Positions 15,028 to 52,030 of a stretch of 64,000 nt of DNA are shown in pieces. Location: NCBI GenBank assembly GCA_000091205.1, contig AP006492.2. One strand, given 5' to 3'. This stretch comes from Cyanidioschyzon merolae (taxonomy: Eukaryota). The translations under genes and the position numbers were made by a program. Positions within the stretch are counted from its first letter, which is position 1; each line of letters opens with the position of its first letter. The notes below the pieces were generated by a model. The model was not told the DNA's origin, did not search any database, and saw only the letters and a list, made by a program, of their open reading frames with translations.

Positions 15028-15028
15028 C

Positions 15029-15046
15029 TGTGTGTGTGTGTGTGTG
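15029..15046. repeat. (TG)9 microsatellite abutting the TBC gene start codon
   Basis: 'ctgtgtgtgtgtgtgtgtgc' is seen directly in the sequence. Confidence 0.8.
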
Positions 15047-18150: not shown

Positions 18151-18364
18151 TAGAATGGGTGGAGCAGTCTTGAGTTGAAAAAATTTTGGCTAGACATCTA
18201 CGGATATAACAGCACATAACAGTCATCGTTTTCGAGATCGAACGCGCGATCGCCTGGAACGCATCAGTCTCTGCACTGGTGTGTAGCGTCAGATTCTATG
18301 ATAGACGTTCACCTCTGTACGTTGGTGCAGCGTTGCAGCGATCGCACGCAGCAACTGCTTATCG

Positions 18365-19096
18365 ATGAAGTTGCACACGTTTCGGTGGATGAGTACTCAG
18401 GGTCCAGAGGTAACGTTTGGGCAGGAGTGTTCGCGGAACCCGGAGCGCTCGGTTGCGTTTACGACGGGAGCGAGCTCGAGCGTGCGGTTCCTGGTCGCGC
18501 GCCCTTCACCACCAGCGCCTGCGCTGGCGCAGCGGGCCCGCAACCGCAGCGCTACTCGCTCAACGTCTGGAGCACGCTTTGCGTTGCCCCGCAGAGTCGC
18601 CTGTCACGGTGTGCAAGAACGAAGACGACTGCTCACGTGCCTGGCTGGACAGCCGGATAGAGCGCGGCACGAGTCCGAGGACAACTCGAACGCAGGCGGT
18701 GCGCCTGCCGATAAAACCGGCAACACCGGCGGAAGCATACCACAGCGCAATCCACAACATCAAGTACCAAAAAGCTTGATCGACTGGAACGAAGAATGGA
18801 AGGCGTTCGTGAGTGAGGGAAAAATCGACTGGAGCCAGCTGCCCCGGGAACGGCCGGCGCCAACCGTCTGGACACGCAGCTCTGCCCGAGTGCGCCAACT
18901 ATGGTCGCAGTTTAGAGCGAGAACACCTACCTGGCGAGAGGTTTCTCGTGATTGGCGCTTCTGGGTTGCGCTGCTGATCACGCTGTCAGTGCTGAGTTCG
19001 GTATGGACGTATTCTGACGTCTCGCATCATGAGTCGATCCCGCCAGGCGTGAGGGCCGCACTCGAAAACCTCACAGTACTCTACGCACTGGTCTGA
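18365..19096 (+). CDS. Hypothetical protein with a C-terminal transmembrane segment (FWVALLITLSVLSSVW)
   Basis: The ORF has host-like GC and begins about 215 bp downstream of R2 copy 2. No recognisable domain is present, so this is a weak call. Confidence 0.25.
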   Translation: MKLHTFRWMSTQGPEVTFGQECSRNPERSVAFTTGASSSVRFLVARPSPPAPALAQRARNRSATRSTSGARFALPRRVACHGVQERRRLLTCLAGQPDRARHESEDNSNAGGAPADKTGNTGGSIPQRNPQHQVPKSLIDWNEEWKAFVSEGKIDWSQLPRERPAPTVWTRSSARVRQLWSQFRARTPTWREVSRDWRFWVALLITLSVLSSVWTYSDVSHHESIPPGVRAALENLTVLYALV

Positions 19097-19249
19097 GGCG
19101 TAACGTCTCGGACACGTTCGGCACCAGACAGGTGTATCTGTACGGTATCTTCGAATGGTTCGATCGTGCTGCAGGATGCTGAAAAAAACGATTGGTTTTG
19201 TGCTGTGGAGCCAATTGACGAAATTCATTACAGCGATTCCAGGACATCA

Positions 19250-20580
19250 TAGCTTTGTAGGGCGCAGAATTCTGGAAGCTGCGATCGCGACCCAGATCGG
19301 ATGGAGAACCATAACCGGATACGAACGACCTCTTTTCCTAAACAGTACATCTCGTGGCCGTATCCGGCTGACGCAGGGGGTGGCTTTGATTTTGCGAGCG
19401 CTCATACAAGTAGTGCATGCGCAGCACTGGTTGTCGACAGATACCAACAGCGATGCGTCGCACTGTTGTGCAGCGTGCTGCCCCGGTATCCGCGTCATTG
19501 CAGATACCGCTGAACCCGGGAGTGGAGTGACCGGTACGTTATGGTGAGGATCGCGCTTACCCGGAACACAAAGAATCCTGCAATTCATGACAAGGGGCGG
19601 CGTCTGTGCGTACATATCCATGTCCAAAGCGAGAGCACTTGCCTCCAAGCCATAATTTTGTGTCCAGAAATCGCATCCGTGGTCTACAGCAGACGCGGAT
19701 AAGCGCAAGCGTCGAGACGCTGGCTTGACTCTATACCGGAACTACAACCTCGCATACACATGCAAGTACTGGTGGGAGGCGCTGGAATTCCCGGGACTTG
19801 CTCGAGGTACCCAGTGGCTCGCGAAAATCCGCGTTGATGGCTTCTGGCTACCAGCACGGGCTCTAAGCCGTATAGGGACACTGGAATCGCACTGGGAATC
19901 ACACTGTCCCTGCTATCGAGACGAAATCCCCGAGACGCTGACATATTTAGGCTTACAGTGCCCGCGCTGGAAGCAGGAGCGCAGCGAGCTCCTTGCAGGA
20001 CAGCAGCAGCTGGACATCACCGTGATAGGCGAAGGCCGGACAATCACTTTGAGTGCAGCACTGGCAACTGATGGTCCGCTAACCGAGCCTCAACGCTCAT
20101 TCGTGGCCAATAAACTCACATGCTACCTTCTAGGCAGCAGGTCCAGCGAAGCGGATGCGTACACGGGCACAGTGCGCTTTCTGCGCCTACCTTCTGTGGT
20201 GGGTGTCAAGCACAAATCCGCATTTCCAACCGACAACAACGCATTCCATGCATGATCACCAAGGAGGGAGGCGACTCCCTCGATTTATCCTAACAGCCAA
20301 GTTTCTCCAGCGTGTTGTGCAGCGAAGGCAAGCCTGCATCCGCAGACTGTCCGAGCACACACTGACGACGAGACCCGATTCTACGTCGGGTGAACCACGC
20401 CTTGAGCCGACGCCCTCTGGGGTATAGAAAAGCCGTTCTGTCTCTATGATGCATCTGTACCAAAGGTAAAGACGCCATTGCGGACTATCTTGGCAGGCAT
20501 TAGGTGTGCGATAGAACGTTTGAGACGACCAGTATATCCGAGAAAAAGTATAGGTAATGTAACTTGGACGCATTGGGTAG
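19250..20580 (+). mobile_element. 5'-truncated non-LTR (LINE-like) retrotransposon 3' fragment, terminating in the R1 tail module
   Basis: ORF 19725..20255 contains HWESHCPCYRDEIPETLTYLGLQCPRWKQER, which resembles the C-terminal zf-RVT (C-x2-C ... ET..H....CP) motif of non-LTR ORF2 proteins. An upstream ORF contains a degenerate YPADAGGG that is possibly derived from the YADD box. The 3' 350 bp carry the R1 core 'ccttgagccgacgccctctggggtatagaaaagccgttctgtc' and the R1 tail 'gaccagtatatccgagaaaaagtataggtaatgtaac'. Confidence 0.35.
20230..20580 (+). repeat. R1 repeat, copy b (LINE-3' variant with an alternative head)
   Basis: Its core and tail are shared with R1d/e/f. The head 'cctaacagccaagtttctccagcgtg' is shared only with copy c ('ttctaactgccaagtgtctccaaggc'). 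Confidence 0.55.
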
Positions 20581-20782
20581 TATGATGAACGATTTCTCGA
20601 TGACCGTTAACCATTCCGCATTCTTCGATCCCTGATCCTTGTGAATGGTTTGTCATCGGAGAACAAAAACCATCCTCGTCAAGTGCACGGCGATTGATTG
20701 TATACAGCATTGCTGGGTGCTTTTCTGCAGCCGTTTGCGGGCAGTAGTTATGTGCTTCGTTTTCACATCGTGATTCTTTATC

Positions 20783-21382
20783 ATGAGCCAGGACTTGACT
20801 GCAGATGAGAAGCGAGTGCTCGCAAGCTTGCGTTCGGCCCGAGCGCAGGCGCTGGCTTGTCGTCAGCAGCTTGTTCTGTTGCAGGAACGGCTGCTCGTAG
20901 CACAGGGCGGTCCAGTGGAAACGCAAGTTTCCAGCAGCCTCGTAACACAATATGGCCTTGTGCTGCGGCTTTATGGTCTAGTATGGGCGGAAGTGCAGCG
21001 TCTCCTGGTCGAGTGCGAGTCGTGGCTCGTTGAGCCGGTTGTAGCATCGAGCCGCGTCCCGGAGCTGCTTCGAACACGACTCGACGTCCGCCTTGAGCAG
21101 TCCGACGAAGCACTCGAACGCGCAGCAGCCCGCTTCCTCACCGAGAGCAAATGGAGCTTGACTGAGCTCGAAATGCAAATCAGGGAACATAGCCAGTGCG
21201 TGCTGACTGCCGGCGAGTCGCTGACCGAGACACTGCGTGCGTTCGAGCTCGACGAACGGTACGTGGGACGGCAGGCGCTCTCACCAAGAGTCGGAGACAG
21301 CGAGCGACTATGGAGTGTTGAGGACCTGCTTCCAACGCTTCGAGCACTAGATTCGGGTTATGCACCGCCAGAAACTGGCTAG
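20783..21382 (+). CDS. Hypothetical coiled-coil protein (199 aa)
   Basis: The ORF has host-like composition and sits 200 bp downstream of R1b. No recognised domain. Confidence 0.3.
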   Translation: MSQDLTADEKRVLASLRSARAQALACRQQLVLLQERLLVAQGGPVETQVSSSLVTQYGLVLRLYGLVWAEVQRLLVECESWLVEPVVASSRVPELLRTRLDVRLEQSDEALERAAARFLTESKWSLTELEMQIREHSQCVLTAGESLTETLRAFELDERYVGRQALSPRVGDSERLWSVEDLLPTLRALDSGYAPPETG

Positions 21383-22372
21383 GATAGCGGGCAACGCCAA
21401 CGAATGCCTCGTTCGATACGAGGCACCCGCTCTCTGGCTTGCCGAGAGAGCCTCCTCTATGCTGCGATGACGTTGTGAACCTGTCGTGTTGACGGAGCAG
21501 ACACAGTCCTGTCACTGGCTGGCGGATACGTGCGCTCGGAACGGAACACGACCAGAAAAACAAACCCGTGGCGAAGCGTACACAGAGGTGGCAGTGTTTT
21601 GCGGCAAGCGCCGTGCATTCGCTCTCGAGCCACGACATCGAGTCCAGTAACTGAATAGATTCTAGAGTGTGCGATTTTGGCGCTAGTGCAATTGCTCTGG
21701 AGCATCGACATCGAGTCCATGAGTTGAGCATCTTCCAGACTATGCAAGTTTCGTGCTAGCTAGTGCGGGCGCTGAACGAGAATCGGAGTCCGCGCTATGC
21801 CGGCATACGAGCCCACGAGCGGGGAAGGCGGTCGACTCCGCGAACACTCTACATGAGCGGTGCCGCACCCGTTCCTGGGAATAGATGCGGAACGACGCGG
21901 TGGTGTCAATACGGTCGACGCGGACTCGGAATGCACGGAATCGGCCTCGTTGTATTCCCTATGAACGAATTCGTGCTTTATCCAAAAATCGACGCCTCGG
22001 GAAGCGCCGTTGCTATGAGGCTACCAGCCGGTAGCACCGGCACAAGCCGGCCACCGGATTTGTGTGCTGTTTGGGGTCAGCGACGGCGGATCCGTCCATG
22101 CGCTTCTTGGCGACGCGCGCTGGAGTTAGGTCCGATGGCGCATGGAGACGGACACCGCGCTGGACGCCCATGGACGGCATGGAAAGCACTTGCCTCGCCA
22201 GGATTTTCGCGAGGGTTCCAGTGGCGCAGTGCTCGCTCGAAACGCCCCTTATAGACACAGATTTGCCCTGTACTCTCGACAGAGCGTTTCGACTCGCATG
22301 TCGTAGTCGGTGCGCGCAGCGGCTCCACGGGCAGGCCACTGTGTGCGCTCCGCGAGCGAACCTCGCACCTGA

Positions 22373-23740
22373 TTATTGCGCATCGTACGCACCCATCTGT
22401 GTGTACTTTTGTACAACCAAATGATAGAGATTCTCCGCACGTGCCTGGCGCTTCTCCGACTTGCTTAGTGCCGGACTGATGCCTGCGTCGAGGTCGACTT
22501 GTGGCATTAGACTCATCCAGAGTCGTGCATAACTGACGACGCGCTGTTCGCCTTTCTCTTTTTCTACTTGATCTGGCGGCGGTAACATGTTGAAGGTGCC
22601 GATTGCCATCGGGTAGTAGTGACACGGACGACCTGCCTTCTCAGCCGATAGCCGGAAAAGCTCTATTGCGTCTGGATCAAAAGATGCACAGGTGACGCGT
22701 CCCGTTTCGGGGGAGCGTCGATCACGCCCCCCGCTGGGCGCAAACCAGACGCAGCGGCCTCCGTCGGCGAAGAGACGTTCCATTTCCCGCAGGGTCTTAC
22801 GATTGTGAGCCTGCTTCTCCGAACGCCGATCCGGCTCGTCTAAGATATGTTTTTTCGAGTACACCGTCAGCATGGAGCGACCGACGCTAAACGGCGCTGC
22901 TAGTGGATCGTCACGCACCCGATCACCGGCCATATACAGAATGCTCTCCGCGAGTGCTGCCCCAGATTCGCCGAAATGATGGCGAAACATATGGTAGATG
23001 GCAAAAGGATCGGCTTCGCTTTGATGATTCCCCACCAGGCATACGTTATCACCAGCTGCGAGCTGCGCTCGGATGCATGCGAACGACGCCTCCGAGGACG
23101 GATCCAGGTAGGAGCGTTGCAGATCACAAAGCGGTCGCGAAAATCTGTTTCCAAATGCGGTATAGTTGAACTCAGGTCCGCTCACAGCTTGATGATACGG
23201 CTTGAAATGGAAGGGGTGCTTCAGCTCATAGATAAGAATATCGAAAAGTGTTGAAAAGTTATCCGAGCACCAGCGTAAGACCTGCTTTGGGTCGGTTGAC
23301 GGACACCCGAACAGCACTAGCGCCCCGTCCGCAGCCGCGGCTAGCGCAGCTTTCTCGTACGATTCATACCAGCCGCGTAAAACTGAGCACGCTCTGGTGC
23401 TCAGAAGCGAACGTTGTCGGAAGAGCTCGAGACGCTCGAGAAACGTCAACTTGGGGTTCGCGTCCGAGAACAGCTTTCGGTCACAACAGGTAGGCGTCGG
23501 ACAAAGCAGCTCGATTGGAAAGCGAAAGCTTTCATTTTCCGCGGTCTGGGCAAAAAGTGTGCGCGCCCCGGGGGCATTCGATTCCGCAGCGAGCGCGACC
23601 CAGCGAGGCAGCGCACGCTTGCGTCTCTGTAACTGCCAGTGAAGTCGTTGCCGCGTTAACAACAAGGATAATTGACGCTTCGTTCGTTGTCTAGAACCTC
23701 TCAAACCGAAAGAAATACAAGACACCCACATGGAATGCAC
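22373..23740 (-). CDS. ATS1: Soluble plastid-type glycerol-3-phosphate acyltransferase (ATS1/GPAT family)
   Basis: LVGNHQSEADPFAI matches the ATS1-specific NHQSEADP acyltransferase box. AGDRV..DPL..PFSVGRSMLTVYSKKH, WFAPSGGRDR and LPPPDQVE are all collinear with plant and algal ATS1. Confidence 0.85.
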   Translation of the reverse strand: MHSMWVSCISFGLRGSRQRTKRQLSLLLTRQRLHWQLQRRKRALPRWVALAAESNAPGARTLFAQTAENESFRFPIELLCPTPTCCDRKLFSDANPKLTFLERLELFRQRSLLSTRACSVLRGWYESYEKAALAAAADGALVLFGCPSTDPKQVLRWCSDNFSTLFDILIYELKHPFHFKPYHQAVSGPEFNYTAFGNRFSRPLCDLQRSYLDPSSEASFACIRAQLAAGDNVCLVGNHQSEADPFAIYHMFRHHFGESGAALAESILYMAGDRVRDDPLAAPFSVGRSMLTVYSKKHILDEPDRRSEKQAHNRKTLREMERLFADGGRCVWFAPSGGRDRRSPETGRVTCASFDPDAIELFRLSAEKAGRPCHYYPMAIGTFNMLPPPDQVEKEKGEQRVVSYARLWMSLMPQVDLDAGISPALSKSEKRQARAENLYHLVVQKYTQMGAYDAQ

Positions 23741-24000: not shown

Positions 24001-24570
24001 GGACTAGCAGCGTCTGTTTGCGGTGATGATGACAAGCGCTTCCAGACTGCTCCCCATGCAGTGATTCCCCAAAAGTCTCTTCGAAGAAAACTTGACGGAC
24101 ACGCTTCTCCTCGACGGCTAGCAGCGTCTCTTTGCGGCGATGATGACAAGCGCTTCCAGACTGCTCTCTATGCGGAGATTCTCCAAAAGTCTCTTCGAAG
24201 AAAACTTGACGGACACGCTTCTCCTCGACGGCTAGCAGCGTCTCTTTGCGGTGATGATGACATGCGCTTCCAGACTGCTCCCCATGCAGTGATTCCCCAA
24301 AAGTGTCTTCGAAGAAAACTTGACGGACACGCTTCTCCTCGACGGCTAGCAGCGTCTCTTTGCGGCGATGATGACAAGCGCTTCCAGACTGCTCTCCATG
24401 CAGTGATTCCCCAAAAGTCTCTTCGAAGAAAACTTGACGGACACGCTTCTCCTCGACGGCTAGCAGCGTCTGTTTGCGGTGATGATGACAAGCGCTTCCA
24501 GACTGCTCTCCATGCAGTGATTCCCCAAAAGTCTCTTCGAAGAAGGCTTGAAAAACACGCATATACGCCC
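24001..24570. repeat. Minisatellite of 5 near-identical copies of a 114-bp (38-codon) unit
   Basis: Units start at about 24001, 24118, 24232, 24346 and 24460 ('gg(a/c)tagcagcgtct(g/c)tttgcgg(t/c)gatgatgaca(a/t)gcgcttccagactgct...'). The repeat is in frame on both strands. The plus strand reads LAASLCGDDDKRFQTALHAVIPQKSLRRKLDGHASPRR, and the minus strand is also open. It lies about 260 bp upstream of the ATS1 start codon. Confidence 0.8.
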
Positions 24571-29789: not shown

Positions 29790-30700
29790 GTGTCCAAGAT
29801 CGCACGTGTCCAGCTCTGGATTCTCGCGTGGGCCTCGAAGGTAACGTCAACTCCGGCGAACAGGTTCCGTTTCCATCTGAAAAAGTCCCTTTTCGATGCT
29901 GTGGGTATATTGATGCACGCTTACGCGCTGCTCGTGTCCGTCCGAGGTATCCGGCGATACCGGAAGCGTGCCGTTCGCGACCACTGGGCCCAGCCTCGAC
30001 GTCTTTTGGAGCCTCATGATGCGTGCTCCATGACAGTACGGCTGGATCGGTTCACGTATCGTGTCGTGTACGAAGGACCTCCGGTCCGATTTTTCCCGGT
30101 CGTTGCGCACTCATGCCGCTGGGTTGTCCCCAAGCGTACAGAGCCTCGTGAATCGCGCCGGGCGTGCGTCCATCGAGCGATAGCCCCGCACCAAGTTGTT
30201 AGAGGCGGCGCTAACCGCACACGCACCAGCACATCGACTAGCTGCTCGTCGGGAGGCATTTCATCGAGCAGGACGAGCACGCAGGTTCACGGATTCAGCA
30301 GCACATCGACTAGCTGCTAGTCGGGAGGCATTTCATCGAGCAGGACGAGCACGCAGGTTCACGGATTCAGCAGCACATCGACTAGCTGCTAGTCGGGAGG
30401 CATTTCATCGAGCAGGACGAGCATGCAGGTTCACGGATTCGTTCACCTCGTCACTCGCGTAAGCCGAGCAAAGGTCCGCGTATCGAAACGTCAACACACG
30501 CGATACATGGTGGTGAAGGAGAAACGCGCTCCCCAGAATTCTTTCTAACTGCCAAGTGTCTCCAAGGCAACGTGGCGCGAGTGCAGGTCAGTGTACGCAG
30601 GCTGTCGGAGCATAAATCGATAACGATGAATACCGGTCCCGCATGGAATGAATCAAGTCGCATGCTGATGCCCTTCGCGGCATAGCAAAGCCGTTCTGCC
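29790..30700 (+). mobile_element. Second 5'-truncated LINE-like 3' fragment. It comprises a degenerate ORF, a 72-bp x3 tandem array and the R1 tail module (copy c).
   Basis: ORF 29790..30320 (KIARVQLWILAWASKV...DHWAQPRRLLEPHDACSM) aligns weakly with the 19725..20255 ORF (AKIRVDGFWLPARALS...SHWESHCPCYRDE). The 3' part, about 30490-30700, carries the R1 core '...gcatagcaaagccgttctgcctccgtggtgca' in the same order as copy b. Confidence 0.3.
30228..30440. repeat. Tandem repeat of about 2.9 copies of a 72-bp (24-codon) unit
   Basis: The unit is 'agcacatcgactagctgctcgtcgggaggcatttcatcgagcaggacgagcacgcaggttcacggattcagc'. It encodes AAHRLAASREAFHRAGRARRFTDS in frame. Confidence 0.8.
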
Positions 30701-31092
30701 TCCGTGGTGCACCTGCGCCAGCGCCACAGGCGCTATGGAGGGTGCTTATGAAAGACTCGACCCACCGTGGAACGTTCGACACGACCGTTTTCTCCAGACG
30801 GGTGCTTGGTAAATGCAACTTGGGGGTAGCGTCAAGCACGAGCAACGCTTTATCCAATCTCTATATTCTTTCGTGCCTTCGCAGGCATCTCCAGTCTGTG
30901 TAAAAAACCCCTCTGTCCATCGAGAGAAATCATCGACGCCAGCGCATGATGCCGCTGCGCGCGCGCTGCACCGCACCGCACGGGACCATCGCCAGTCCAT
31001 GCATTTCGTCTGAGATAGCCAGCGGCGATTCCCGTTCCGGAACGTGTAACGTGATTTGTTCAGTGTGAGACAAATACAGCTTCGTACGCAGC

Positions 31093-32133
31093 TTGCATTC
31101 GTCTTTGGAACGGAACATGGATCCTAACAGGAAGAAACTGTGCTGTTTTTTGGGATTATTTTTGCCAGCAGGCAAGCTGCTAACCAAAAGAAAGCAACGG
31201 AAACGTGAGAGTAGCGCTTTCGCGGGGAGGTGCTCGCCTGCGCTGACGCTCTGCGCAGTCACGACGTCAGAACAGACGCCGAAGCCTGTACAGTCAACGG
31301 CTGCTGAAGACTCCGCGGAAAGCGAGCTGCAGCTGCAGCTTCTGGGTCCGTTGCGTAGGCGCTCGCTATGGGAGCGCGTCGACCACTACCGTCAGCAGGT
31401 GGCCGCGGAAACCCCAAGTCTACCCTCAACCCGGAACGCCCTGTTGAGCAACTTTGTTCCACGGAACAAAGCTGCTGCTGAAGAGGGTCTTGGTCTCGAG
31501 TGGGACGAGGCTATCGAGGAACTGGCCTGCGGTGCACCGGCGACGATATGCCCTGTGATTCGCTTCACCTGTCGCCGAGGACACGTGGTTTCAGTGGCAG
31601 CGAATAGCAAGCTCGCTTCCCGGGGTGAATGCCCTGTTTGTCAGTATGCGGCGCGCTGCGGACGGGCGTCGTCTTTGAGGGAGTATCGACCTCTGCAAAG
31701 CAAGCGCTTTGAGCGCTACACGCTCGACATGCTCAAGGCTGCTGCAATGGAACGCGGCGGCGAGCTCCTCTCCACCGAATACGTCAATGCACGTCGGAAG
31801 CTGCTCTGGCGCTGTGGACAGTGTAAGCACGAGTGGTTCGCTACGACGGACAATATTTTGAGACTCGGTTCGTGGTGTCCAAAGTGCGCTCGCCGCCAGG
31901 GCCGTAATCGGGTAACGCTTGCAGATATGCAGGCCATTGCGGATATGCATGGTGGAGTGTGTCTGTCGAAAGAGTATCGGGGTGCCATGGTTCCACTACA
32001 GTTTCGTTGTGCAGAGGGTCACGAGTTCTGGGCGAACCCGAATAACATACGGCGAGGGATTCGTGGCCATGGAACGCAGCGCAAGCCGAGCTGGTGCCCG
32101 CACTGCGCGCGTGAGCGCCGCCAAAAGTCTTGA
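31093..32133 (+). CDS. Protein with three DUF4379-type zinc-ribbon repeats
   Basis: The repeats are FTCRRGHVVSVAANSKLASRGECPVCQ, WRCGQCKHEWFATTDNILRLGSWCPKCAR and FRCAEGHEFWANPNNIRRGIRGHGTQRKPSWCPHCAR. All fit W/F-x-C-x2-GH-x-W/F...CP-x-CA. The start may instead be M9 (MDPNRKK). Confidence 0.6.
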   Translation: MHSSLERNMDPNRKKLCCFLGLFLPAGKLLTKRKQRKRESSAFAGRCSPALTLCAVTTSEQTPKPVQSTAAEDSAESELQLQLLGPLRRRSLWERVDHYRQQVAAETPSLPSTRNALLSNFVPRNKAAAEEGLGLEWDEAIEELACGAPATICPVIRFTCRRGHVVSVAANSKLASRGECPVCQYAARCGRASSLREYRPLQSKRFERYTLDMLKAAAMERGGELLSTEYVNARRKLLWRCGQCKHEWFATTDNILRLGSWCPKCARRQGRNRVTLADMQAIADMHGGVCLSKEYRGAMVPLQFRCAEGHEFWANPNNIRRGIRGHGTQRKPSWCPHCARERRQKS

Positions 32134-35100
32134 GTCCAGCACGCTGTGCACAGTGCTCGAGAGCCTGCACACAACCAACGACATTCGTCGCTGGTTTGAT
32201 GGACTCCGAGCATTTCAAAGCAGCAAGAGTGTCGTGCGGCAGCTCTAAGGGTCATCATGGCGTCGATTGCGCGCATGAAGGGTACGGAAGTTCGATTGTC
32301 GAGGCCGGAACGCTAGCCTGGTGGCGGATGACACGGATCACGACGCAGCGCATCGTCGGCTTGAGACCGCCCGGAACGGCAGTTCCTCAGTCTGGGTACA
32401 CCTGCATCATCAACACGCTTCGTTGACGCTGGAGAAGAGACTGATGGCGATTGTTGGTAACGTTGTGCGGTGGATGTGGCGCTCGCCCTACAGTTTAAAG
32501 TTTTCGGGATTGCATTTTTTGTGCTTAAGGTTGTTTTTAGAAATCGCATCACTTTAGGACTCGAATACGCAACAGTGGGCCGGTACGCTAGATTTTGCGA
32601 GCTAGAACTTTGGACACGAGCGCGTCGTAGGGACCCCGTATGGTCGTAAAGGTATGGCGTGCACCCCGTACGGAAACGGAAACGAGACACCGCGCGGTGT
32701 GTTGTTATCACGATTGTCAGGTTCTATCATACGTTGTACATAAAGGTCAAATCATGGGACGTCATGGTCGTTCGCCATGTACCGAAAGGAACTGGTCTTA
32801 GCGTACATGACCTGCGCTGCAGCCTCGCTGGATTGCTGAACCGCATCACGCCGGGGCATCGCTCCAGACAAGAATCCAATGTAATGAGGCGTACCCACTG
32901 GTTTCATGATCCCAAGTGAGCAGCGTTTCAGCACAATGCCCTCACTGAATACGAAATGAATCCCTCAAGGGCTCGCCTGAAAGCAAGAAGCTGGACGCTC
33001 GGGAAGCTCGAACGATTTTCCGGAATTTTGATCGAGCATACGGCGTCTCGATATAGAAGGTGCTTCCGCGCATCGCTGCTGCTAGAATGATACCCAAGTT
33101 AGCCGCGCATCCGCGATTGCCTCGGCATCTGCTCTTCGATCAGCGTACCGTGCGCCATCTCGTGCGTCCGCCTCTGTTCCACGTTCGTCTGTTCTATCTG
33201 TTCCAGCGTGCACCTACGCTAGTGATTTGTTGATTTCGTCCGGATCGCATCGATGAGAATCGAGAACGATGGCGTCCTGGAAGCGTTGTACACTTACGTC
33301 AGTGGAGCATGCGTACAGCGTTTGAGCGCTGCAGCATGCCGAGCGCAATGGATACCCACAACTCAATGCGACATAGCGGCCATTTCCTCATCCAACTCTT
33401 TGAACAAGTTGCCGAATGCAAGTTTTTCGTCAAAGTACAAGTGAAACAATTGGCGGCCCAACACGTTTTCATATATTCCTGCGAAAAATCGTCGACGTGC
33501 GCCGTTTCAACGCCCATTTACGCGCTTGATCAAGCGTACGAAACATCCACCTCTGCTCTATACGGTGCTGAGGACGTCGATATCAAAATCCTGGCGTCGT
33601 CACGCGCCATGCTGATATGCTTCCTGGCATTCAGTGTGCCCGTCCCTCGATAAATTCGGAACCGCGCATACGTTGAGCAGGTTCATCTGCTTTCCAATCA
33701 AGTTTCTGGCGTTGTGCTCTTGGTTTCGAGGCACGACGATCTCCTTGGTGACCGTCGCTCCAGGAAACACGCTCATCACAAAGTGCTTCTCTTCATTGAC
33801 ATAATTCCGTTGAAATTGTGTCCCGTTGCTCCACGCAGGCCTGAGCTTCACTGCGTGCATATAGATCGGTGTTCCGTCGCTCTCCATCGTACTCATATAT
33901 TACGCTTCACGTACTCCTCGTAAACATGAAACATTGAACGAGCTCCGCCGGTGCACTCTGCCATGGTGTTTGAATGCTTCATACTTGCTCGCAGAAACGA
34001 TCTCCTTATCCGCTTCCACCATTGCGTGGGCGGATGGCATGCATGTGATCTTCATTCTCTAAATCCACTTTTTCCATGGTTTCAGACATAATCGGGGACG
34101 ATGGCGCTCGAGCTCGCCTCTTCGATATATGGGTCGAGTATTCCGCAGGTACTTTGCGTCACCTTCTCTGGAGCGGGCACGCCTATGGGCCGCAGCGCGA
34201 CTTTCCGCCCCGCCCTGCGTACGAGCAGGAGTTCCTTAGCTCGCTTCAGGGCTAGCACAGCGAAAGAATGGTTCGTAAACGAACATTGCCACGGATGCGA
34301 ACGACTCGTCTATTGATCTGTGAGCATCAAATTGGTGTTGGATAACAGAAAAGACGCCTTCGACTGGACTGAATCAGAAACAATAGACTGCACCGGAGTG
34401 CAGCGCAAAGTCGAACTATGCTGTGAAATATTGCACGGTTTTTGGGCGATAAAAAGTGACCTCGACATAGCGCATGACAGACGAGCATCGGACGGCGACG
34501 GCACGAAGCATGCATCGACAAAACGTCATATGATGAACGATCTTTTCTGTTGGACGCTTCATAGGCAAGCGCGCGACTGAGTCGGCTACGAGGCCCATGA
34601 TTTCGAAATGCTTGCTCGTCGCTTCTTCATGATGAGCAGATTTTCCCGCTTTGAGTACCCCGAGAAAGGTCTACGATTTCTCCCGAATGAAGTTTCATTG
34701 AGCAAGACGAACACCTGCCGCTCCTGTAATACGCGTTCACGTTTCAGTGCGAAATCAATCGGTTGTTGTTCGATGCACGACGCTCTCGAGCAGAAGCAAG
34801 CCTTATCGCGTTGTCCATCGGTTTCTTTTCTTCACCTTTCATAGCACCGGTAGAGACGCATCATATCGCGTGGCTCGTTTCGACTTCATTTCATCATAGA
34901 TTGTATGAAAAAGAAAGGATTGGCGAAGAGACATTCGCGCGGCAAGCGTTTGATAATTTCTGATTCAGTTGCACAACGTTCAGGGTATTGACTACCAGAA
35001 CGGTGGTTCATCCATCTGGTTCATGTGAAATAACTGACTTAAGCAATAAATCCCGTTTTTCGCGAGAGACCAGTGACACCATCGATTCCTTCCTCAACCA

Positions 35101-35444
35101 TTCCCCAATCTACAGGATACGTTTCTTCTGTTGAATTCCTGTAAGAAAAACAAACAAAAGCGGAAAAGCGTGCACTGATAAGAGCATTATGCAAGTCACT
35201 ACGCTTCCCCTAACGCTAGGCTCCGAACACGACCGCGACGGTGTATTCGCCTCGGTGGTCTTCGCTCTGACCCCAATCCATGGAAGCGAGCCGAATGCAT
35301 GTACATCGAGACGCAGCGCGTTCACGTGGTCAGCATATCCAGAGAAGCAAACCTGATGTGCGTAGACAGCTGAGGAGGCGTCGCTGCATCGGCTGCTGGG
35401 GCGCAGATTTTGCCCATTGTTGCAGCGCGGACAAGTGTTCCGAA

Positions 35445-36028
35445 TTCTCGAAAATTTACCTTCTAGGTGGAAGGTCTCGCGAGCCGGACGAGCCTGCCGG
35501 GCATACGCCCTGTGCGCCTCTGCAGCGACCGATGCTGTAGGGAGATCTCCGCTGCCCCTCGGCAACGTAATCAATCTGGGGCTCGCAGCGAGTATGCTGC
35601 GTTTCCGCGTCGCGCAGGTCGCAGAGGACTCCGAGCATATCGCTTCGCGCTATCGCAGGCAATACGTCTGTATGCGCATCTTGCAGGCTCCCTGAATGAC
35701 AATGAATCCCGAATCCATATCGTGCAGAACACGCCTCGAGCCGACGCCCTCTGTGGTATAGAAAAGCCGTCCTACGTCCGTGATGCATCCGTACCAAAGG
35801 TAAAGACGCCACTGCGGACTATCAGGGCAGGCATTAGGTGTCCGATAGAACGTAGGAAACGACCAGAATATCCGAGAAAAAGTATAGGTAATGTAACATG
35901 GAAGTAGGGCGTTTGAAGGATACTTCACCTCGCACTAAAAAAACACAAAAAAAAAGTAAGAAAAGAAAAATGCGCGTGATCGGAGAACGCTGGCACAAGT
36001 ACACCTTTTGTCCATGAAAAAAAAATCG
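35445..36028 (+). repeat. R1 repeat, copy d (most complete copy, with an A-rich tail)
   Basis: Head 'ttctcgaaaatttaccttctaggtggaaggtctcgcgagccggacgag'. Core 'cctcgagccgacgccctctgtggtatagaaaagccgtcctacgtccgtgatgcatccgtaccaaagg'. Tail 'gaccagaatatccgagaaaaagtataggtaatgtaac...aaaaaaacacaaaaaaaaagtaagaaaagaaaaatgcgc...gtccatgaaaaaaaaatcgg'. It ends 408 bp upstream of the bZIP ATG. Confidence 0.6.
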
Positions 36029-36435
36029 GTGCTTCCAATTCTGGACACAGGTGGTGCTGGCGCAGCATCGCACAGCGCGCTCCATCAGCATGCCGCGGCA
36101 CACCGCGCGCCGTGGGCGCCACACACGCGAGCGTCTGCTCAGCGCGCTGCGCGGCACAGGAATCCAGATGCATGCGGTCTGTTGTTTTTTTTGATTGTTC
36201 GTTGCTGGTGGTCGCGTCTCGGCTGCAAGTTGCATATTCTTCGTGTCGGCGTGGTTGTGGGGTGCGTTCTTCCACTGGTACTAGAGGACAGGTTGTCAAT
36301 CTTGGTCGCTGACGACGAAAGCGCTCTTTAAGGGTTAGGCGCTGCGCTACTAACGCGGCACGCGTTTGACGGCAAGCTCTCTGCACCAGATAGGACGCTG
36401 CGGCTGCACCGACGCGTTCGCTTCGGCGTTCGTGT

Positions 36436-38151: not shown

Positions 38152-40825
38152 TCCATTGAGGTCCCTACGCTTTACTTAGAGCTTTTCGTTCGCTTTTAAG
38201 CCGAGACGGCAGGTTGCGCAACGTCATCGAGTTGTAGACGCGCACGAATAGCGAGTGCTTATTTCTCGACACGATGAAACTGGATTCGGAAAATAGATTC
38301 ATGAACTAAAGAGTGAACTGATTCCCGATGGAGGCCGAACGCCGTTCGAAAGTCGAACGACGGCAGTGCACCGTAGTGGCGAGAAGGCCGCCCTAGACTT
38401 AACGACTCCAACTGGCGTACTGACGCTTCCTAGGCTTTCTGGACCGGCCACCCACTACTGATTCCAACTTCTTCTCATATAAATCAACTTTGAGAGGTTG
38501 TCCAATAAAGTTCTCTCGTGTCCGCTCTGGAGGTCTTTTCTCCAGCACCGCGCATCTCCTGATATTGATAGCGGCGTTGAAGTCTCGGTTAACGAACTCC
38601 ATACGCTTCTTGCCATCATTGGTTGTACATACTAATGCAATGAGTCCACGAACTTTTGCCTTCCGTTCCATTTGCTCTCCCGTCAGCGGTCCGTACTTTG
38701 CAATTTCCTCAGGACTCCTCTGGCACTTTTCCATCTCCAGGCTCTGGAGTGTGCACCCCAGTTCATGATGTGTATAAAATGTTCGAAACTCATGGATCGG
38801 TATTGTGACAAAACGCCGTGCACACTCCTTGTACGTTCTTGTCGTCGGAGCTGGCAGAGTTCCTTTTTGGGTGTTCCATCGCCCTGCTCCGTACGCTACT
38901 ACAAGCCTCTGTCTTTCATCCTTCTTCGAGGCGCTCAACTCATTGAAAAAATTCGCGAACGCCCGCTACCTCCCACCATATAGATTCGTACGCAGACGAG
39001 CCCACCGGGGCTCTGTATACTCCTCCCACAGCGCCTCCCAATGGGCAACAAGAACTTCCATGAAATTCCGAAAAGCTGTAAAGTCCGCTCCTCGGCTCGT
39101 CACCTCGCTCATAGCTTCAAGGTGATCCTTCATTCCTGCGTTCCACGTAACGATTTTCTTCCTTGCATTCATTATACCGGATTCTCGGTAGTATCTTGCT
39201 CTGGAGAACCTCCAAAGGCGCATGTCTTTCTGACGTAATTTGCCGTCAGTACCATATTCCGCACGCTTCGGTGCTGTGATGGTTATGATATTCGTGTTCC
39301 CAGGGTCTGCGCCGACGACAAAGTCGTTATCTTGGACTCTCTCCGTCGCAGGACCCGCCTCCTTCTTTTCTTCATGTTTCGCCGCGCCAACGACAAGGTC
39401 GTTATCCCGCACCTCCTGCATTGCAGGACCCGCCTTCTTCTCATCTTCATCCTTCGTGACGGGCGCAGCCAAAGGCGGACCAGCACGATCTTTCTACAAC
39501 CGCCGATAGTGTACACACAAGGCTACTCCATCGGTTTCGATCAACCCAGTGAACCACTTTTGCTCGCTCATTTTGAGACGTTTGAAATTGAAGATATTCT
39601 TCCAGTACGTTTCCCGGTTTTCATCGGAGAACTCCTCCCTGTTACCATTGAACTCCGGACTGATCCCCTTCATGATGCCGTAAAGGACTCTGGAGTCGGT
39701 ACTCACGAAATGTGACTTGATGTTGCACATTGGAACGACGTTGAAGCGCTTCCCCATTGGGACAGCCTTCCGTCTCTCCCACTCTTCATTTTTTTTCCCC
39801 ACTCAGCTTCATCTCTGCTTTGCGCTCGAGTTCTCGGTCCATGAACACGAAATACCGTACGACGAGGCGATCGTATCTTTCCTTATCTTTTTTCATGTCT
39901 GATATCTTGTCTGTTGGATTCGCCAACCCAGTACCGCACGATGCTCTTGAATAGCCGCACGGATTACAGAAGCTTCATTCGTGCTCTCGTTTGACGCCTT
40001 CTCGTCGACAAATTCGACCTCATCTTCACGCTTGCGATCTTTCACGATGTCGTTGATAATCGCCCATTTCCCATGGCGAGAGATGCCCTGGTACAGCGCA
40101 AACACGGCGCGTATCATGAAACGTTCGGGGTTCACTGTCAAATGGTTCTTCAGATTCGTGAAGTACTTCATTGCCCCGTCTGTGTAAATATCCCCGTCAC
40201 CCTTGTATCGAGTACCCTCGAGGCTGTAAAAGGGATGTTTTTCGTGGAGAGCATGCACTAGCTCATTTTGCCTCCTCGTTTCCCCTGTACCAAGCATCAG
40301 GTAACGAATAAAGTCTTATCGAAAAACTCGTCCGGAATCTCGACCGTTTCCGTGTGCGTCACGTCTCCGTACATCTCCCTCGCCAAATGAATCAATCCTG
40401 ACGACACCTCGACAACACGCTTGGAGTACGAGTCGACACGTTTTGCTGATACCCTCTCGCAACTTTTCCCTCTAGGGATCCTTGATATGTCCAAGACGAA
40501 AAGGTTTTCACCATAATATCGTCGTGCTGTCGTCTTTCCTGCAGCTTCTGACGTTGGACCTCTCCGTTTTGCCTCTTCGTCTTGTATTGTGGCTCCGGGC
40601 TTGGTACTTTTGTTCGTTTTTTTTCTGGCAGCCGGCGACACCTGTCTTCCAGGATCCTTCATTTCCATGTCCATAGCTTTCCTTTGTTATTTTTTTGAAG
40701 AAGAGCGCACATGAAACGCGTTTGCTGTACACCGCGGGAAAGCACTTGAGTACACGCATTTGAGGGTTGAAACACGGTTGCACTGACAGACTATACGCTG
40801 CTAGGGCTTTAATGCAAATACAACT
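38152..40825 (-). mobile_element. Fanzor/TnpB-like (OMEGA-family RuvC nuclease) element, copy B; the more complete copy
   Basis: The ORF series 40297..40674, 39893..40297, 39494..39802, 38966..39472 and 38399..38938 reconstructs a roughly 700-aa protein. A RuvC-I-like motif reads [18 protein letters not shown]. The C-terminus has a TnpB-like Cys-containing helper region (EFRTFYTHHELGC...EKCQ) and a RuvC-III-like motif FVNRDFNAAINIRRC. Its upstream boundary at about 40825 is defined by homology to copy A ending after 'gcaaatacaact'. The low-GC 3' flank 38152-38398 presumably holds the right end of the element. Confidence 0.6.
38399..40674 (-). pseudogene. TnpB/Fanzor-like RuvC nuclease gene (copy B), interrupted by at least three frameshifts and an internal 20-codon tandem duplication
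   Basis: See the mobile-element entry. The frameshift sites differ from those of copy A. A duplicated peptide [20 protein letters not shown] / [21 protein letters not shown] lies immediately before RuvC-I. Confidence 0.55.
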
Positions 40826-41033
40826 CGTACGTTATAGCAATACGCTCATATTAAGGATCGCGTTTCCCAGTTACGGCAAGATGCGCTTTGCGTCTCATGC
40901 ATGCCAGATATGGAGATGCGCGTCTTGACTGCGCTCTAAAATAAAGAGCGGATAGGAACCTCTAAATACCAACTATATAACAATTTCTGGCCCCGCCTGC
41001 GATAAACGTTGAAAAAGGGAAAAGCTTACGGTA

Positions 41034-41640
41034 TTCTCGAAAGTATACCTTTTAGGTGCAAGGTCCCGCGAGCCGGACGATTCTGCCAGGGTTGTGCCTC
41101 ATGGTCGCCGCAGTGCTTCGTGCTGTAGTAAGATCTGAGCAGTTCGTCCGAAACGCAGTTGATTCTGGTACTCGTAGCGGGTATGCTGCACGTGGGCGTC
41201 GCTCTGGTCGCAGTGGACTCCTCGAATATCGTTTCGCGCTGCCACCGGCACTACGTCCGTCTCTACTGTTTCCACGCTCCCGGAATAATAATGTACTCCA
41301 GACCACGTGTCGGATGCATCATAATTCGATCCGACGCCCTCAGAAGCATGGAAAACCCGCCCTGACTTCGTGCTGCATCTGCCGCAGCGGTCTGACCGCA
41401 GACGCGGGTGCCCCAGACAGGCAAGACCCCCGATAGAACGTAAAAGAACGATCAGTATTTTCGAAAGCAAGTCTGAATGATAGACCTTGGTACACCAGCA
41501 TGACGAACGCTTTGTTTCGATTACCAGTACGCATCCCGCAATCTGGGATCCTTCGTCAATGGAACCGGTTTATCAAGAGTAGAGAAGATCACAAGCAGCG
41601 TGGCCGCCGCCTGCCTGACACAGCGGCTACACGGCCTACA
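41034..41640 (+). repeat. R1 repeat, copy e
   Basis: Head 'ttctcgaaagtataccttttaggtgcaaggtcccgcgagccggacgattctgccaggg'. Core 'ccgacgccctcagaagcatggaaaacccgccctgac'. Its extended 3' part, 'gcatcccgcaatctgggatcc', is shared with copy g ('gcatcccgcagtctaggatcc'). It lies about 210 bp beyond the upstream end of Fanzor-like copy B, separated by a spacer homologous to that of copy A. Confidence 0.55.
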
Positions 41641-45079: not shown

Positions 45080-45690
45080 AGCCCTGTATGCCCAGCGACA
45101 CGCTGATCGATGCTCTTGTCATCAACAGAGCGACTATAGAAAAGACCGGGGATATGCGATTTCATGCCTGGTATCAGCAAATGGAAAAGCGTTCATCGAT
45201 CCAGAGCCTATATCCGAGTCCCATGTACGCGTCAATCAATCGCCGGCTTCGCGTACCGCGTTGCACCCGAGCGCTAGCATCTTGCGTGCGTTGGGGTGCG
45301 CGCGCCGGCACGCACCTCTCGATGCGTGCCGGCGCATTCGGGCGGGCGATGCTGCGAGTAACGCCTCTGCTGCTGCCGAGCATGCAACAGGCGATGCGTC
45401 CTCGAGCCGACGCCCTCTGTATGGTACGGCAACGCCGTTCTGTCTCCGTGCAGGGACCGCACCGGCGCTATAGGCGCTATTGCGGTCGCCGCTTTCGGCA
45501 GGCACTAGGCACACACGATAGGACGTATGAGATGACCAGAATATCCGAGATGAAGGATAGGTAATGTAACGTGGGAGTAGGGGATTCGGTGGATACTTGA
45601 CCGCGCACTGAAAAAATAACACAAAAAAGTAGGAATAGAAAAATACGCATTATCGGAGAACGCTGGCCTAAGTAAACGTTTTGTCAATGA
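45080..45690 (+). repeat. R1 repeat, copy f (head partly degenerate)
   Basis: Core 'cctcgagccgacgccctctgtatggtacggcaacgccgttctgtctccgtgcaggg'. Tail 'gaccagaatatccgagatgaaggataggtaatgtaacgtgggagtagggg...gcgcactgaaaaaataacacaaaaaagtaggaatagaaaaatacgc...gtcaatgaaagaaaaactgg'. Confidence 0.55.
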
Positions 45691-46761
45691 AAGAAAAACT
45701 GGCAACACGTATGATGCAGAATGACACGGTGGGCGTGCTTGCCCCGATGGTATCTCGCGTTTGGCGTCGAGCCCTGGCGTGCGTCTGTGCGTGCCACGCG
45801 CGTCACGTAAGCGATACATGATGCTGGTGTGTGCCTCTGCCCACGGGACGCTCCCGTGTCGAACGGCGGGCCGCCTTCACGAAGCGTCTGCGCGGAGCCA
45901 ACACCCAGGTGCCTCCAGAAGGGTACGCAGAGACCAGTTGACCTGAGGCAGCGCTTGCGCCAGTACGGACGCGTTTCTGGTGCATGACCGCAGCGCTACC
46001 CCTATCGGATACTTGTCGTTGGTGTTGGTCGGCACAGCGAGCCGTACGAGTGTGCGTTCCGGCGCCTGTCGCGCTCAAGAGAACCCTGTATGGATAGCGC
46101 CAAGCGTGCGATACCCGGTTCCGAGGCCAGCTTCCATGACGCCGTATAGCCGTCCCGCCTCTCCGTCAGGCAACAGCAGCAGCGCACCCGGCTGCACAAC
46201 AAGTATCTACGATAGGCTCTGCATTCGTGAGGTCGATGGATCGCTCGAACCCCTATATCCCAGATAATGCCTTTTCCATACGTCGTGCTGTACATCCATC
46301 TATGGACAAGAAGTGTACTCGATTCCGCACCTGCCTGCGGAAAGCGCCGCCAGCACCAGCAGCTCGCGCGCCCTTGTTATCATGGTGAAAGTTCAATGAA
46401 ACGTTCCACGGCATCCGCCAAGCAAAGTCGTTCTCAGCATGACGCAAGACGTGCACCAAGCTGCACCAGCAAAAATTACCGCTCATGCTTGCCTGTGGAC
46501 GTCTCATCTTGGTGTCGCGCTGGATCATGATACCGGTTACCTGGCGCGCGAGATGCGCCAGTGCCACACAGCGGCGCGCGTGTGGCCAGCACGACGCCCC
46601 GCTCCGCCTCCCTGCCCTGAACGTATCGTGTGTCGAGGGGCAGGCATCGCTGCGTACTAGCACTGGTACCAGGTGCGAGCAGTCCGGTGTGACTTCGCTT
46701 TCCAGGCGTACGGGTGTTGTGTCTGTGACGATACGCACGGTGGTTTGCAAAAAATCGCAAA

Positions 46762-50545: not shown

Positions 50546-51174
50546 ACAAGGAGTGCCCGATGTCGCTGCTCAAGGAACGTGTCGATGACGCCCTATGCAA
50601 ATACACGCGGGTACATTGGACACGATTTCGCGTGCGCCGCTCTTCAAACATACACTCTTGGGAAAAACCTTTTTCACGCAGGCGCCGCTGCTTGGTAACC
50701 TATCGCGCAGCAGTGATCCAGCGTGTCTCGACCTGACACCTTCATTCATGAACCCGCGCTTCATACCAAGCAGCAGAGCATGGAGCCAGAATCTCTGTTA
50801 TCCGACGCTGTCTGCATAGAGGAGTGCTCGCATGCAACCTGCTGGCGCATGTGGATACGCGTTCTTCACAGCTTTCTGCCCTTGGACTAGTCTACGGGCG
50901 TGCGCGCTCACTTTCCCCGAAAGTCGATAGAGCAATCACTCGACGGCACCAAGCGTCGTCATTCTTCGCGGGAAACGTCGTCTTCGCTTCGATGGTTGTC
51001 GACAACAGTCGCGCATCCAGGGGATACTGGTACCATGCATCAGTCGCATGCAATCAGTGAACACACTGAACGAGATACCAGAAACAAAACGAGAGAAACC
51101 AAATTCTAACTAGCGTCTAGATAAGAATGTCGTTCAAACTTCACGGTAAGCATTGACAGGGAGACGTTTTCCGC

Positions 51175-52030
51175 GTATTCGAGTGTTACGCTTCTGGGGG
51201 CAGGAGGCCCCGCGAACCGGACGAGTCTACCGGGCTTGCGCTCCGTGTGCCTCTGCATTGCCGGGCTCAGGAGCAAGACGCAAGGAACTCGTTCGCCACG
51301 CAGTTCATTCTGGGACTAGGAGCGGTTGGGCTGTCTCTGGGCGTCGACCTGGTCACGGAAGTCTCCAAGCATATCGCTCCACGCTGCCGCAAGCTGAAGA
51401 GCTGGCTGCGCAACTCGCACGCTCCCAGCAGGACGAAGAGGCCGGATTCCTTGTTCAATGAACCACGCCTCGAGCCGACACCCCCAGTGGTGTGGCAAAG
51501 CCGTTCTGACTGGGTGCTCCATTCGCACCGGCGGTACAGACGTTACGGTGGGTGCTCACTGGATGCGCTCAGTCCACGACAGATCGTATCGAGCGACCAG
51601 TCCATCCGAGAGCAAGGATCGGAGATGGAACTTGAAGGTACACTGAAGAATAATGGACGCTTTTCTTAATCTCAATATGCATCCCGCAGTCTAGGATCCA
51701 CGCTCCAAGTAAACGTTCTGGATGAACAAACGCAATCCACAAGGGTCGTCTGCGCCGCTGTGCCGCTCCGGGAACGCGGCAGCGATCCATGCAATCGCCC
51801 AGCTCGCTTGCAACGCATGGCGATCGTCCCGGAGGCGCGGCCGGAGCGGCAGCTCAAGGCAACGAAGGGCGAGGCGAGGCAGCGCGGTGCGGCAGGCGCC
51901 ACCGGCGGCGATCGCATCGATCACATGCACCGCGCACTGAAAAACCCCCCAAAAAGAAAGGCAAAATGCGCATCATCGGAGAACGCTGGCCTGAGTGAAC
52001 GTTTTGTCCATGAAAAAGAAAATCGATCGC
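51175..52030 (+). repeat. R1 repeat, copy g (with a duplicated or extended 3' region)
   Basis: Head 'gtattcgagtgttacgcttctgggggcaggaggccccgcgaaccggacgagtctaccgggc'. Core 'cctcgagccgacacccccagtggtgtggcaaagccgttctgac'. Tail 'gcgcactgaaaaaccccccaaaaagaaaggcaaaatgcgcatcatcggagaacgctggcctgagtgaacgttttgtccatgaaaaagaaaatcgatcgc'. The tail overlaps the first codons of the SAS-6 ORF. Confidence 0.55.

Follow-up and report, generated by a model that had tools for sequence, protein, structure and literature searches.

Why should every copy of a short interspersed repeat in a gene-dense genome segment lie on the same strand, and just 5′ of a gene? The question is raised by R1, a repeat of which the focal copy occupies positions 35390-36030 of the stretch of DNA analysed here, a segment of 64,000 nt that we refer to as the window. 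Exact protein matches identified the window as part of chromosome 10 of Cyanidioschyzon merolae 10D, spanning reference proteins 15 to 30; its annotated genes use both strands, 8 of the 13 being on the plus strand. A first-pass annotation had offered three possible answers: promoter-directed insertion, exaptation of R1 as a promoter or 5′UTR cassette, and selection against copies that run antisense to their neighbours. The reading that we favour, with a probability of about 0.72, is that R1 is the 3′-terminal module, ~0.55-0.64 kb in length, of a C. merolae LINE-type retrotransposon and was spread by its reverse transcriptase (RT), and that the position of full-length copies upstream of same-strand genes reflects a survival filter.

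The repeat itself is not in doubt. Self-BLAST of the window, and BLAST of positions 35445-36028 against the window, placed all copies on the plus strand, confirming the seven copies and their shared orientation as originally described and adding an eighth insertion, a tail fragment. Identity of the window copies to copy d, the focal copy, was 66-85% by BLAST, and a degenerate 48 nt core pattern (CCGACGCCCTC...GCCGTTCTG) matched six copies and nothing in 100 shuffles. Copy limits were defined with an nhmmer profile built on R1 copies. The coordinates first given stood for copies a, d, e and g, whilst those for b and c proved too narrow and the left end of f had been set ~300 bp too far to the left. 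The R1 insertions of the window are:

7859-8407, plus strand: copy a, which forms the R1 module of composite element E1 and runs antisense to its Fanzor ORF (E=2.5e-148 over nhmmer model positions 10-562); 811 bp separate its 3′ end from the methyltransferase ATG at 9218.
20125-20661, plus strand: copy b, the R1 part (nhmmer) of a LINE fragment at 19717-20668.
30409-30929, plus strand: copy c, a solo copy (nhmmer), with its 3′ end 188 bp before the CMJ033C ATG at 31117.
35390-36030, plus strand: copy d, the focal one, solo and of TE-N2 type (nhmmer 35439-36030 plus a 5′ head of ~50 nt), with the A-rich insertion present and the terminal letters ...GTCCATGAAAAAAAAA; the bZIP ATG lies 406 bp downstream.
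41029-41605, plus strand: copy e, the R1 module of composite element E2 (nhmmer to 41593), ending about 130 bp from the annotated COX6A start at 41729.
45374-45704, plus strand: copy f, 5′-truncated (nhmmer, model positions 268-567 only), 1058 bp from the ABCA ATG.
51125-51737, plus strand: copy g, a solo copy with a tail of the older type (nhmmer 51171-51720).
51928-52026, plus strand: the eighth insertion, a heavily 5′-truncated tail of ~100 bp of the younger type (nhmmer 51961-52024), containing an ATG at 52010 and ending 224 bp short of 52250, where the annotated SAS-6 begins.

R1 was thus rightly seen as an oriented interspersed element, but two aspects had been missed: the family is published, and copies a and e belong to 3 kb Fanzor1 elements. 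Bao & Jurka 2013 (PMC3627910) described ~150 copies of a ~3 kb Fanzor1 element, CMe-1A, in C. merolae, of which the 5′ 635 bp correspond to TE-N2_CMe, present in ~70 copies; no terminal inverted repeats (TIRs) were found, target site duplications (TSDs) could not be determined and the class was given as 'unknown'. By published description rather than by consensus alignment, R1 matches TE-N2_CMe, the end module of CMe-1A. The two share the organism, a unit of ~635 bp that also ends a ~3 kb element, the Fanzor1 protein, the lack of TIRs, a high copy number and copies that are ~65-85% alike, and the solo R1 copy that is bounded by a TSD measures ~640 bp, comparable to the 635 bp of TE-N2_CMe. The descriptions differ in that the paper reads the unit as the beginning (5′) of the Fanzor element, whereas in the present analysis its other strand is shown to be sense for an RT-encoding LINE that ends with it, and in that one TSD, of 13 bp, is reported here.

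The R1 family is also already known as part of the 253-copy repeat of Nozaki 2007 (PMC1955436), in which transcribed repeats of ~3.2 kb, whose truncated ORF weakly resembles WSV486 of WSSV, were found to make up ~5% of the genome in a distribution called random. The size and truncated ORF of that repeat fit composites E1 and E2, whereas the R1 module, the link to a LINE and the orientation were not separated out in that study and are distinguished here. Set against the Nozaki 2007 repeat, the density in the window is ~7 times the genome average. As written, the original R1 finding was an ordinary one, because the repeat is a catalogued transposable element; what is added here to the published family is the assignment of R1 to a LINE tail, a single clean TSD and a co-directional rule common to R1 and the Fanzor unit.

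Copies a and e form the ends of a longer duplication, in which 5511-8209 matches 38598-41391 by self-BLAST, and both continue into 2.3-2.7 kb with minus-strand ORFs. The broken ORFs carry the RuvC motifs GADPGNTNI and NRDFNAAINI, and have 227 close homologues, nearly all from hot-spring metagenomes. Pfam searches of the window ORF pieces and of the close homologues found no domain, searches of the PDB with the single sequence and with a shallow profile returned no matches, and AlphaFold prediction from a 20-sequence alignment reached a pLDDT of 33. The assignment to Fanzor1 rests instead on a profile deepened with distant relatives from a search of 1.8 billion proteins, which matched the solved Fanzor1 structures of Parasitella (9CF0, E=2e-20) and Guillardia (9CER, E=5e-4). 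The D, E and D positions are invariant in the family alignment, and relatives of the ORF gave weak matches to Cas12f1-like_TNB. Three features of the window belong to this unit:

5511-7858, minus strand: body of E1, a degenerate Fanzor1 gene with broken ORFs, matching E2 reference positions 261-3054; the last ~260 bp of the Fanzor unit are missing, and the truncated end abuts codon 1 of LPAAT at 5510.
38338-41028, minus strand: body of E2, a Fanzor1 pseudogene with ORF pieces between 38399 and 40674; together with copy e, the whole of E2 spans 38338-41605.
16950-17186, minus strand: an isolated Fanzor1 C-terminal fragment, 67% identical to 38530-38766.

The LPAAT protein next to the truncated end of E1 is itself shortened, at 202 aa in the window versus 282/373 aa in relatives.

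To place R1 beyond the window, metagenomes were scanned with the repeat. Twenty of the 26 stretches recovered were orthologues of the same window (98.4-99.6% identical) and are not independent, and for that reason the independent orientation sample is small; it consists of L001, L025, L029, L031, L032, L038, L039 and L040. Scans of viral and prokaryotic genome collections returned no matches.

In L028, an ORF with an RVT_1 domain (Pfam, E=2.9e-22) lies upstream of R1 on the same strand, and R1 constitutes the last ~550 bp of the element. The same layout, in which the RT is followed by a 3′UTR, R1 and an A-run, is repeated in L025 (94% identity) and L039 (91%); the flanks of the three LINEs differ, and we therefore treat them as separate copies. 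In total, R1 is continuous with the LINE 3′ end at 89-94% identity in three RT-bearing copies and one truncated copy. Within the window, copy b is a 5′-truncated non-LTR retrotransposon, with ~400 bp of LINE 3′UTR followed by R1, and 19717-20568 matches positions 3344-4190 of the L028 LINE at 91% identity. Close relatives of the RT include C. merolae proteins named 'retroelement, alive'; 26 RT-encoding copies have been reported for C. merolae 10D, of which 3 are intact. RVT_1 was the only Pfam match in the LINE, with no endonuclease domain found by Pfam; the one hint of such a domain is the motif 'ASWNICG', which resembles the N-terminus of an APE endonuclease. Judged from sequence continuity, R1 probably represents the 3′ tail of a C. 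merolae LINE-type retrotransposon. Since the LINE reverse transcriptase is encoded on the same strand, the plus strand of R1 is the retroposon sense strand, and the Fanzor ORF of CMe-1A is therefore antisense to the retroposon.

The structure of individual copies is consistent with retroposition. All six partial copies (b, f, the tail at 51928-52026, L029#2, L031 and L032) have kept the 3′ end and lost the 5′ part, each retaining R1 model positions ~530-567. At the 3′ end the copies have TTGTCnnnGAAAAA and a run of A that varies from 5 to 10 nt, although an A-run this short may have been part of the template. In L039, a solo copy (8188-7550) is flanked by a perfect 13 bp TSD, ATCGATACGTGTA, a length reached in 0 of 300 control windows. 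This is the one clear TSD among about 15 R1 copies, and the 13 others tested, which show none, are too old to judge. TIRs were looked for in R1 elements and none was found, and neither a conserved stem-loop nor a consensus RNA structure was detected in the R1 3′ tail. No tRNA- or 5S-like head and no Rfam match were detected in R1, which thus lacks the canonical Pol III head of a SINE. Solo copies start at a discrete point ~50 nt upstream of the start of LINE homology, and not at scattered truncation points.

The Fanzor unit is ~2.6 kb long. Its outer terminus (...TTCGACTTTCGAACGGCGTT, window 38338) is precise and, together with a hairpin, is kept in 10 of 11 copies; in E2 the terminus has AACGCCGTTCGAAAGTCGAACG at 38338. 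Variable starts on the Fanzor side of R1-type composites, which had been considered, proved to be a BLAST edge effect, as the alignment shows the terminus in those same 10 of 11 copies. Folding of the Fanzor-side terminal region gave conserved stems, with only one compensatory pair. We also observed that this precise, hairpin-bearing terminus looks more like the end of a DNA transposon. At least five different sequences adjoin the Fanzor unit on its upstream side:

R1 head in opposite orientation: E1, E2, L001, L029 and L038.
LINE 5′ region: L002 and L028.
Other DNA: L031c and L032.
R1 copy in the orientation of the Fanzor gene: L040.
LINE tail in the orientation of the Fanzor gene: L025.

Fragments with the Fanzor-side end and without R1 were found in L031a/b, in L032 and at 16950-17186 of the window. 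The Fanzor unit need not end in R1, because such units occur without it, with at least four other sequences in its place. The R1-type composite has nevertheless been amplified as a whole, and its end coincides exactly with the LINE end. LINE-mediated retroposition is one explanation for the spread of the composite, and a DNA-level mechanism is a possible alternative.

We then turned to the orientation of R1 relative to genes. The first-pass annotation had placed each copy just 5′ of a plus-strand gene. For six copies (a and c-g) this holds, the first annotated gene on their right being a plus-strand one; for b it fails, as the gene assigned to it, ORF 20783, is unannotated. Three ORFs (20783, 18365 and 49967) are absent from the reference annotation, two of which, 20783 and 18365, had been used as genes in the earlier argument. 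The codon-position GC of ORF 20783 is gene-like, and no homologues were found beyond its own cluster.

Across all loci, 12/12 full-length R1 copies point with their 3′ end to the 5′ side of an ORF on the same strand. These comprise a, c, d, e and g in the window, five host-gene cases outside it, and two in which a Fanzor ORF serves as the 'gene' (L025 and L040). The host genes downstream of R1 outside the window are:

L001: an MFS gene, 279 bp from R1.
L038: a DJ-1 gene, 194 bp from R1.
L025: a PGK gene, about 145 bp from R1.
L039: an L32e gene, 1165 bp from R1.
L039: a photolyase gene, 340 bp from R1.

The pattern of R1 lying upstream of a same-strand gene therefore extends beyond the window for full-length copies (5/5 host genes). 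Of the truncated copies only 2/6 follow it, namely copy f and the tail at 51928-52026, and the exceptions are b, L029#2, L031 and L032. Full-length and truncated copies were separated only after the data had been seen, and the census is small. L040 was obtained after the rule had been formulated, and fits it. The Fanzor unit obeys a parallel rule, with its outer terminus 0-560 bp upstream of a co-oriented gene in 10/11 independent loci. What does not generalize is the shared orientation of neighbouring copies, as only one of three neighbouring R1 pairs in other loci is co-oriented; for the 7-8 all-plus insertions of the window, the nominal two-sided p of 0.016-0.008 was calculated after the pattern had been seen. 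Taken together, the co-orientation rule for full-length copies seems real.

Could R1 be a promoter or 5′UTR cassette that arrives by oriented insertion into promoters, or that has been exapted to drive the plus-strand genes downstream? The full-length copies lie 80-1165 bp before co-oriented starts in 10/10 host-gene cases, five of them outside the window; several are 100-280 bp from the ATG, close enough that an insertion should disturb a compact promoter or take its place, and the repeat family is transcribed (Nozaki 2007, PMC1955436). However, among near-identical strains R1 varies at 0.0156 sites per bp, like other non-coding DNA (0.0160) and at three times the rate of genes (0.0051), with Fanzor bodies at 0.0224; R1 thus shows no constraint beyond that of other spacer DNA. 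Nor do the ATGs of R1 coincide with annotated starts. The R1 tail had been credited with supplying an ATG to SAS-6 and possibly to COX6A. The ATG at 52010 does share the reading frame of SAS-6; in the reference, however, the SAS-6-domain protein begins at 52250 and COX6A at 41729, the latter position outside R1, and neither longer form is listed there. Promoter-directed insertion is weakened because truncated copies, which have the same 3′ tail and integration step, should share the target choice of full-length copies, yet only 2/6 obey the rule. Furthermore, in 4/10 host-gene cases the flanking genes diverge, so that R1 fits the rule either way round. We consider the cassette, in either form, improbable, and of the three original options it is selection against antisense-running copies that fits best, and it also covers the parallel rule of the Fanzor unit. 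The non-coding-like variation of R1, its failed start codons and the truncated rule-breakers together lead us to favour a survival filter over exaptation and targeting. From these small numbers, we infer that copies persist where their outgoing transcription is co-directional with the next gene.

The same figures leave some room for a plainer account, in which the window pattern reflects chance and layout, namely a transposon-rich region near a chromosome end, an excess of plus-strand genes and insertions that are tolerated only in promoter-containing spacers. C. merolae transposable elements are reported to be enriched toward chromosome ends, 8/13 annotated window genes are on the plus strand, the rule is automatic for copies a, c and f, which lie between divergent genes, and elsewhere two of the three neighbouring pairs are not co-oriented. 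The p value for the five outside cases is 0.03 (binomial, null 0.5) and rises to about 0.13 if convergent spacers are closed to insertions; with those spacers excluded, giving a null of ~0.67 per copy, the 10/10 host-gene cases have a p of about 0.02. Against chance stand the spacers between tandem genes, where 4/4 full-length copies are co-oriented with the downstream gene versus 0/3 truncated copies, the later-obtained L040, and the similar behaviour of the Fanzor unit in independent loci. We regard chance and layout as a possible but rather unlikely source of the whole pattern. A further alternative concerns the nature of R1 rather than its orientation: it could be the left end of a DNA transposon, CMe-1A, with solo copies as non-autonomous or deletion derivatives mobilized by some transposase and the LINE having acquired R1 secondarily. 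Bao & Jurka 2013 (PMC3627910) treat TE-N2_CMe and CMe-1A as unclassified elements of such a sort, the other Fanzor terminus is precise and has a hairpin, as in IS200/IS605-type ends, and the inner boundary of the solo copies is discrete. This is difficult to reconcile with the four LINE copies, three RT-bearing and one truncated, in which R1 is the continuous 3′ end at 89-94% identity, with the truncation of all partial copies at the 5′ end in the LINE sense, with a 13 bp TSD, which is long for most DNA transposons, with the absence of TIRs, or with the Fanzor units that carry at least four other sequences on the R1 side. A DNA-transposon origin of R1 is, in our judgement, improbable.

We therefore return to R1 as a LINE 3′ module, which would exist in three forms: as the end of the 3′UTR in RT-encoding copies; as discrete solo elements of ~640 bp, the equivalent of TE-N2_CMe; and joined in opposite orientation to the upstream side of the 2.6 kb Fanzor1 unit, giving the 3 kb composite CMe-1A. 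By target-primed reverse transcription, the LINE RT would begin its cDNA at the 3′ end of R1, primed from a nicked target, so that RNAs ending in R1 would be copied into new sites. Copying of this kind would be expected to yield 5′-truncation, a short 3′ A-run and TSDs. In spacers of ~1 kb, copies would then survive where the outgoing transcription of the element runs with the next gene.

It is tempting to extend this model to the Fanzor composites. We speculate that the ~150 CMe-1A composites were spread by the LINE machinery, through an RNA that extends from the Fanzor-side terminus into the R1 tail and has Fanzor1 in antisense, alongside a genome-wide orientation filter in which R1 and the Fanzor unit persist only if transcribed co-directionally with the next gene. 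We hold this combined proposal to be unlikely, and offer it tentatively. If true, it would provide the first retroposon-borne Fanzor, as well as a genome-wide orientation filter in an ultra-compact eukaryote. A 2026 review found no evidence for a retrotransposon encoding a Fanzor. Our results raise the question of whether a Fanzor1 gene, encoding an RNA-guided nuclease, can travel on a retroelement, for which current thinking sees no reason. For TE-N2_CMe and CMe-1A, the class of which has been 'unknown' since 2013, the link to a LINE 3′ tail gives a testable answer. C. merolae, a transformable model with a minimal genome, could also be used to measure how strongly orientation relative to neighbours decides the survival of a transposon.

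Comparison with known systems helps to place R1. Leishmania SIDERs are likewise degenerate retroposons of ~0.5 kb that are co-oriented with genes. They lie in 3′UTRs, whereas R1 lies upstream of genes; a SIDER-like, kinetoplastid reading of the window was considered and rejected, as its genes occupy both strands and it belongs to C. merolae, which is not a kinetoplastid. Another parallel is found in the eel UnaL2/UnaSINE1 and the RTE/Bov-tA pairs, in which non-autonomous elements and their RT-encoding partners share a 3′ end and show 5′-truncations and TSDs. R1 and its LINE resemble them as a short element and an RT element with a common 3′ end. They differ in that R1 has no detected Pol III head (tRNA, 5S or 7SL) or conserved 3′ stem-loop, and in that the shared tail of ~550 bp is unusually long.

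The position of R1 relative to genes recalls Dictyostelium TRE5-A and yeast Ty3, which integrate upstream of genes with specificity of position and orientation in compact genomes, and which target Pol III genes via known protein contacts. Like them, R1 is a retroelement of a gene-dense genome that sits upstream of genes in a single orientation, at a short and fairly constant distance. Unlike them, R1 has Pol II protein-coding genes as its neighbours, and its truncated copies break the rule. That truncated copies fall outside the rule points to selection after insertion, rather than to targeting of the kind used by TRE5-A and Ty3.

The ~2.6-kb Fanzor unit, which carries Fanzor1, has one side that can be joined to R1 and, opposite it, an outer terminus. 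In 10 of the 11 independent loci, a co-oriented host gene lay 0-560 bp downstream of this terminus. The loci that fitted this rule were L001, L002, L025, L029, L031, L032, L033, L038 and L040, together with the window locus at 5511. L035 was the exception among the independent loci, and composite element E2 was the exception within the window. The outer terminus is expected to be the guide RNA side of the unit. The Fanzor-side terminus AACGCCGTTCGAAAGTCGAACGACGG (window 38338-38365) forms a hairpin, and equivalent ends were found in L002, L025, L031, L032 and L035. The hairpin is kept by different bases in some copies (e.g. L032, L029 and L040); covariation support is weak. It could be a hairpin bound by a transposase, or else part of an omega RNA, namely its guide-proximal stem. 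At L031 5505-8004, two Fanzor units lie head to head and make up a 2.5-kb palindrome; both are truncated, at around position 1200-1265.

The truncated end of composite E1 coincides exactly with the start of an annotated gene:

Window 4902-5511, LPAAT gene (BAM80171, 202 aa)

The 90% cluster to which this protein belongs also holds relatives of 282 or 373 aa, compared with 202 aa in strain 10D. The N-terminus of these longer proteins is genuine and contains a membrane helix. The C-terminus of the 10D protein is also unlike that of its relatives. The 5' part of the gene in strain 10D seems to have been lost to element E1, or to a deletion linked to its insertion.

Two long stretches of the window, 15027-22373 and 32133-35390, contain no annotated gene. 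The former is packed with transposon debris, comprising a Fanzor fragment, R2 and a truncated LINE. The latter has no ORF of at least 150 aa before 35110, and a ~240-bp piece of it (about 34600-34840) shares 70% identity with L031 19723-19962. [quoted passage not shown]

R2 is a separate interspersed repeat of ~560 bp, with copies that are 67-70% identical:

Window 203-717, R2
Window 17614-18122, R2
L032 2592-3148, minus strand, R2

It carries no A-run, and by BLAST it is related neither to R1 nor to the LINE nor to the Fanzor unit. In L032, a co-oriented DEAD helicase gene is situated 238 bp downstream of the R2 end.

Three tandem repeats were identified, the second of which directly adjoins R1 copy c on its left:

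Window 24004-24560, 114 bp x 5, 94% identity
Window 30224-30440, 72 bp x 3, 96-98% identity
Window 55793-55982, units of about 50-88 bp

In the annotated protein at window 52250-53818, Pfam clearly identifies a SAS-6 N-terminal domain (E=6e-26). Centrioles are generally said to be absent from the red alga C. merolae, and the protein may be an XRCC4-superfamily relative and not a centriole protein.

Two loci carry an insert in sense orientation upstream of the Fanzor gene, with the Fanzor start codon ~200-260 bp downstream:

L040 8047-8606, R1 copy, sense to the Fanzor gene
L025 10563-10987, LINE tail, sense to the Fanzor gene

These insertions are independent events, and their orientation is the opposite of the arrangement in CMe-1A, the R1-Fanzor composite.
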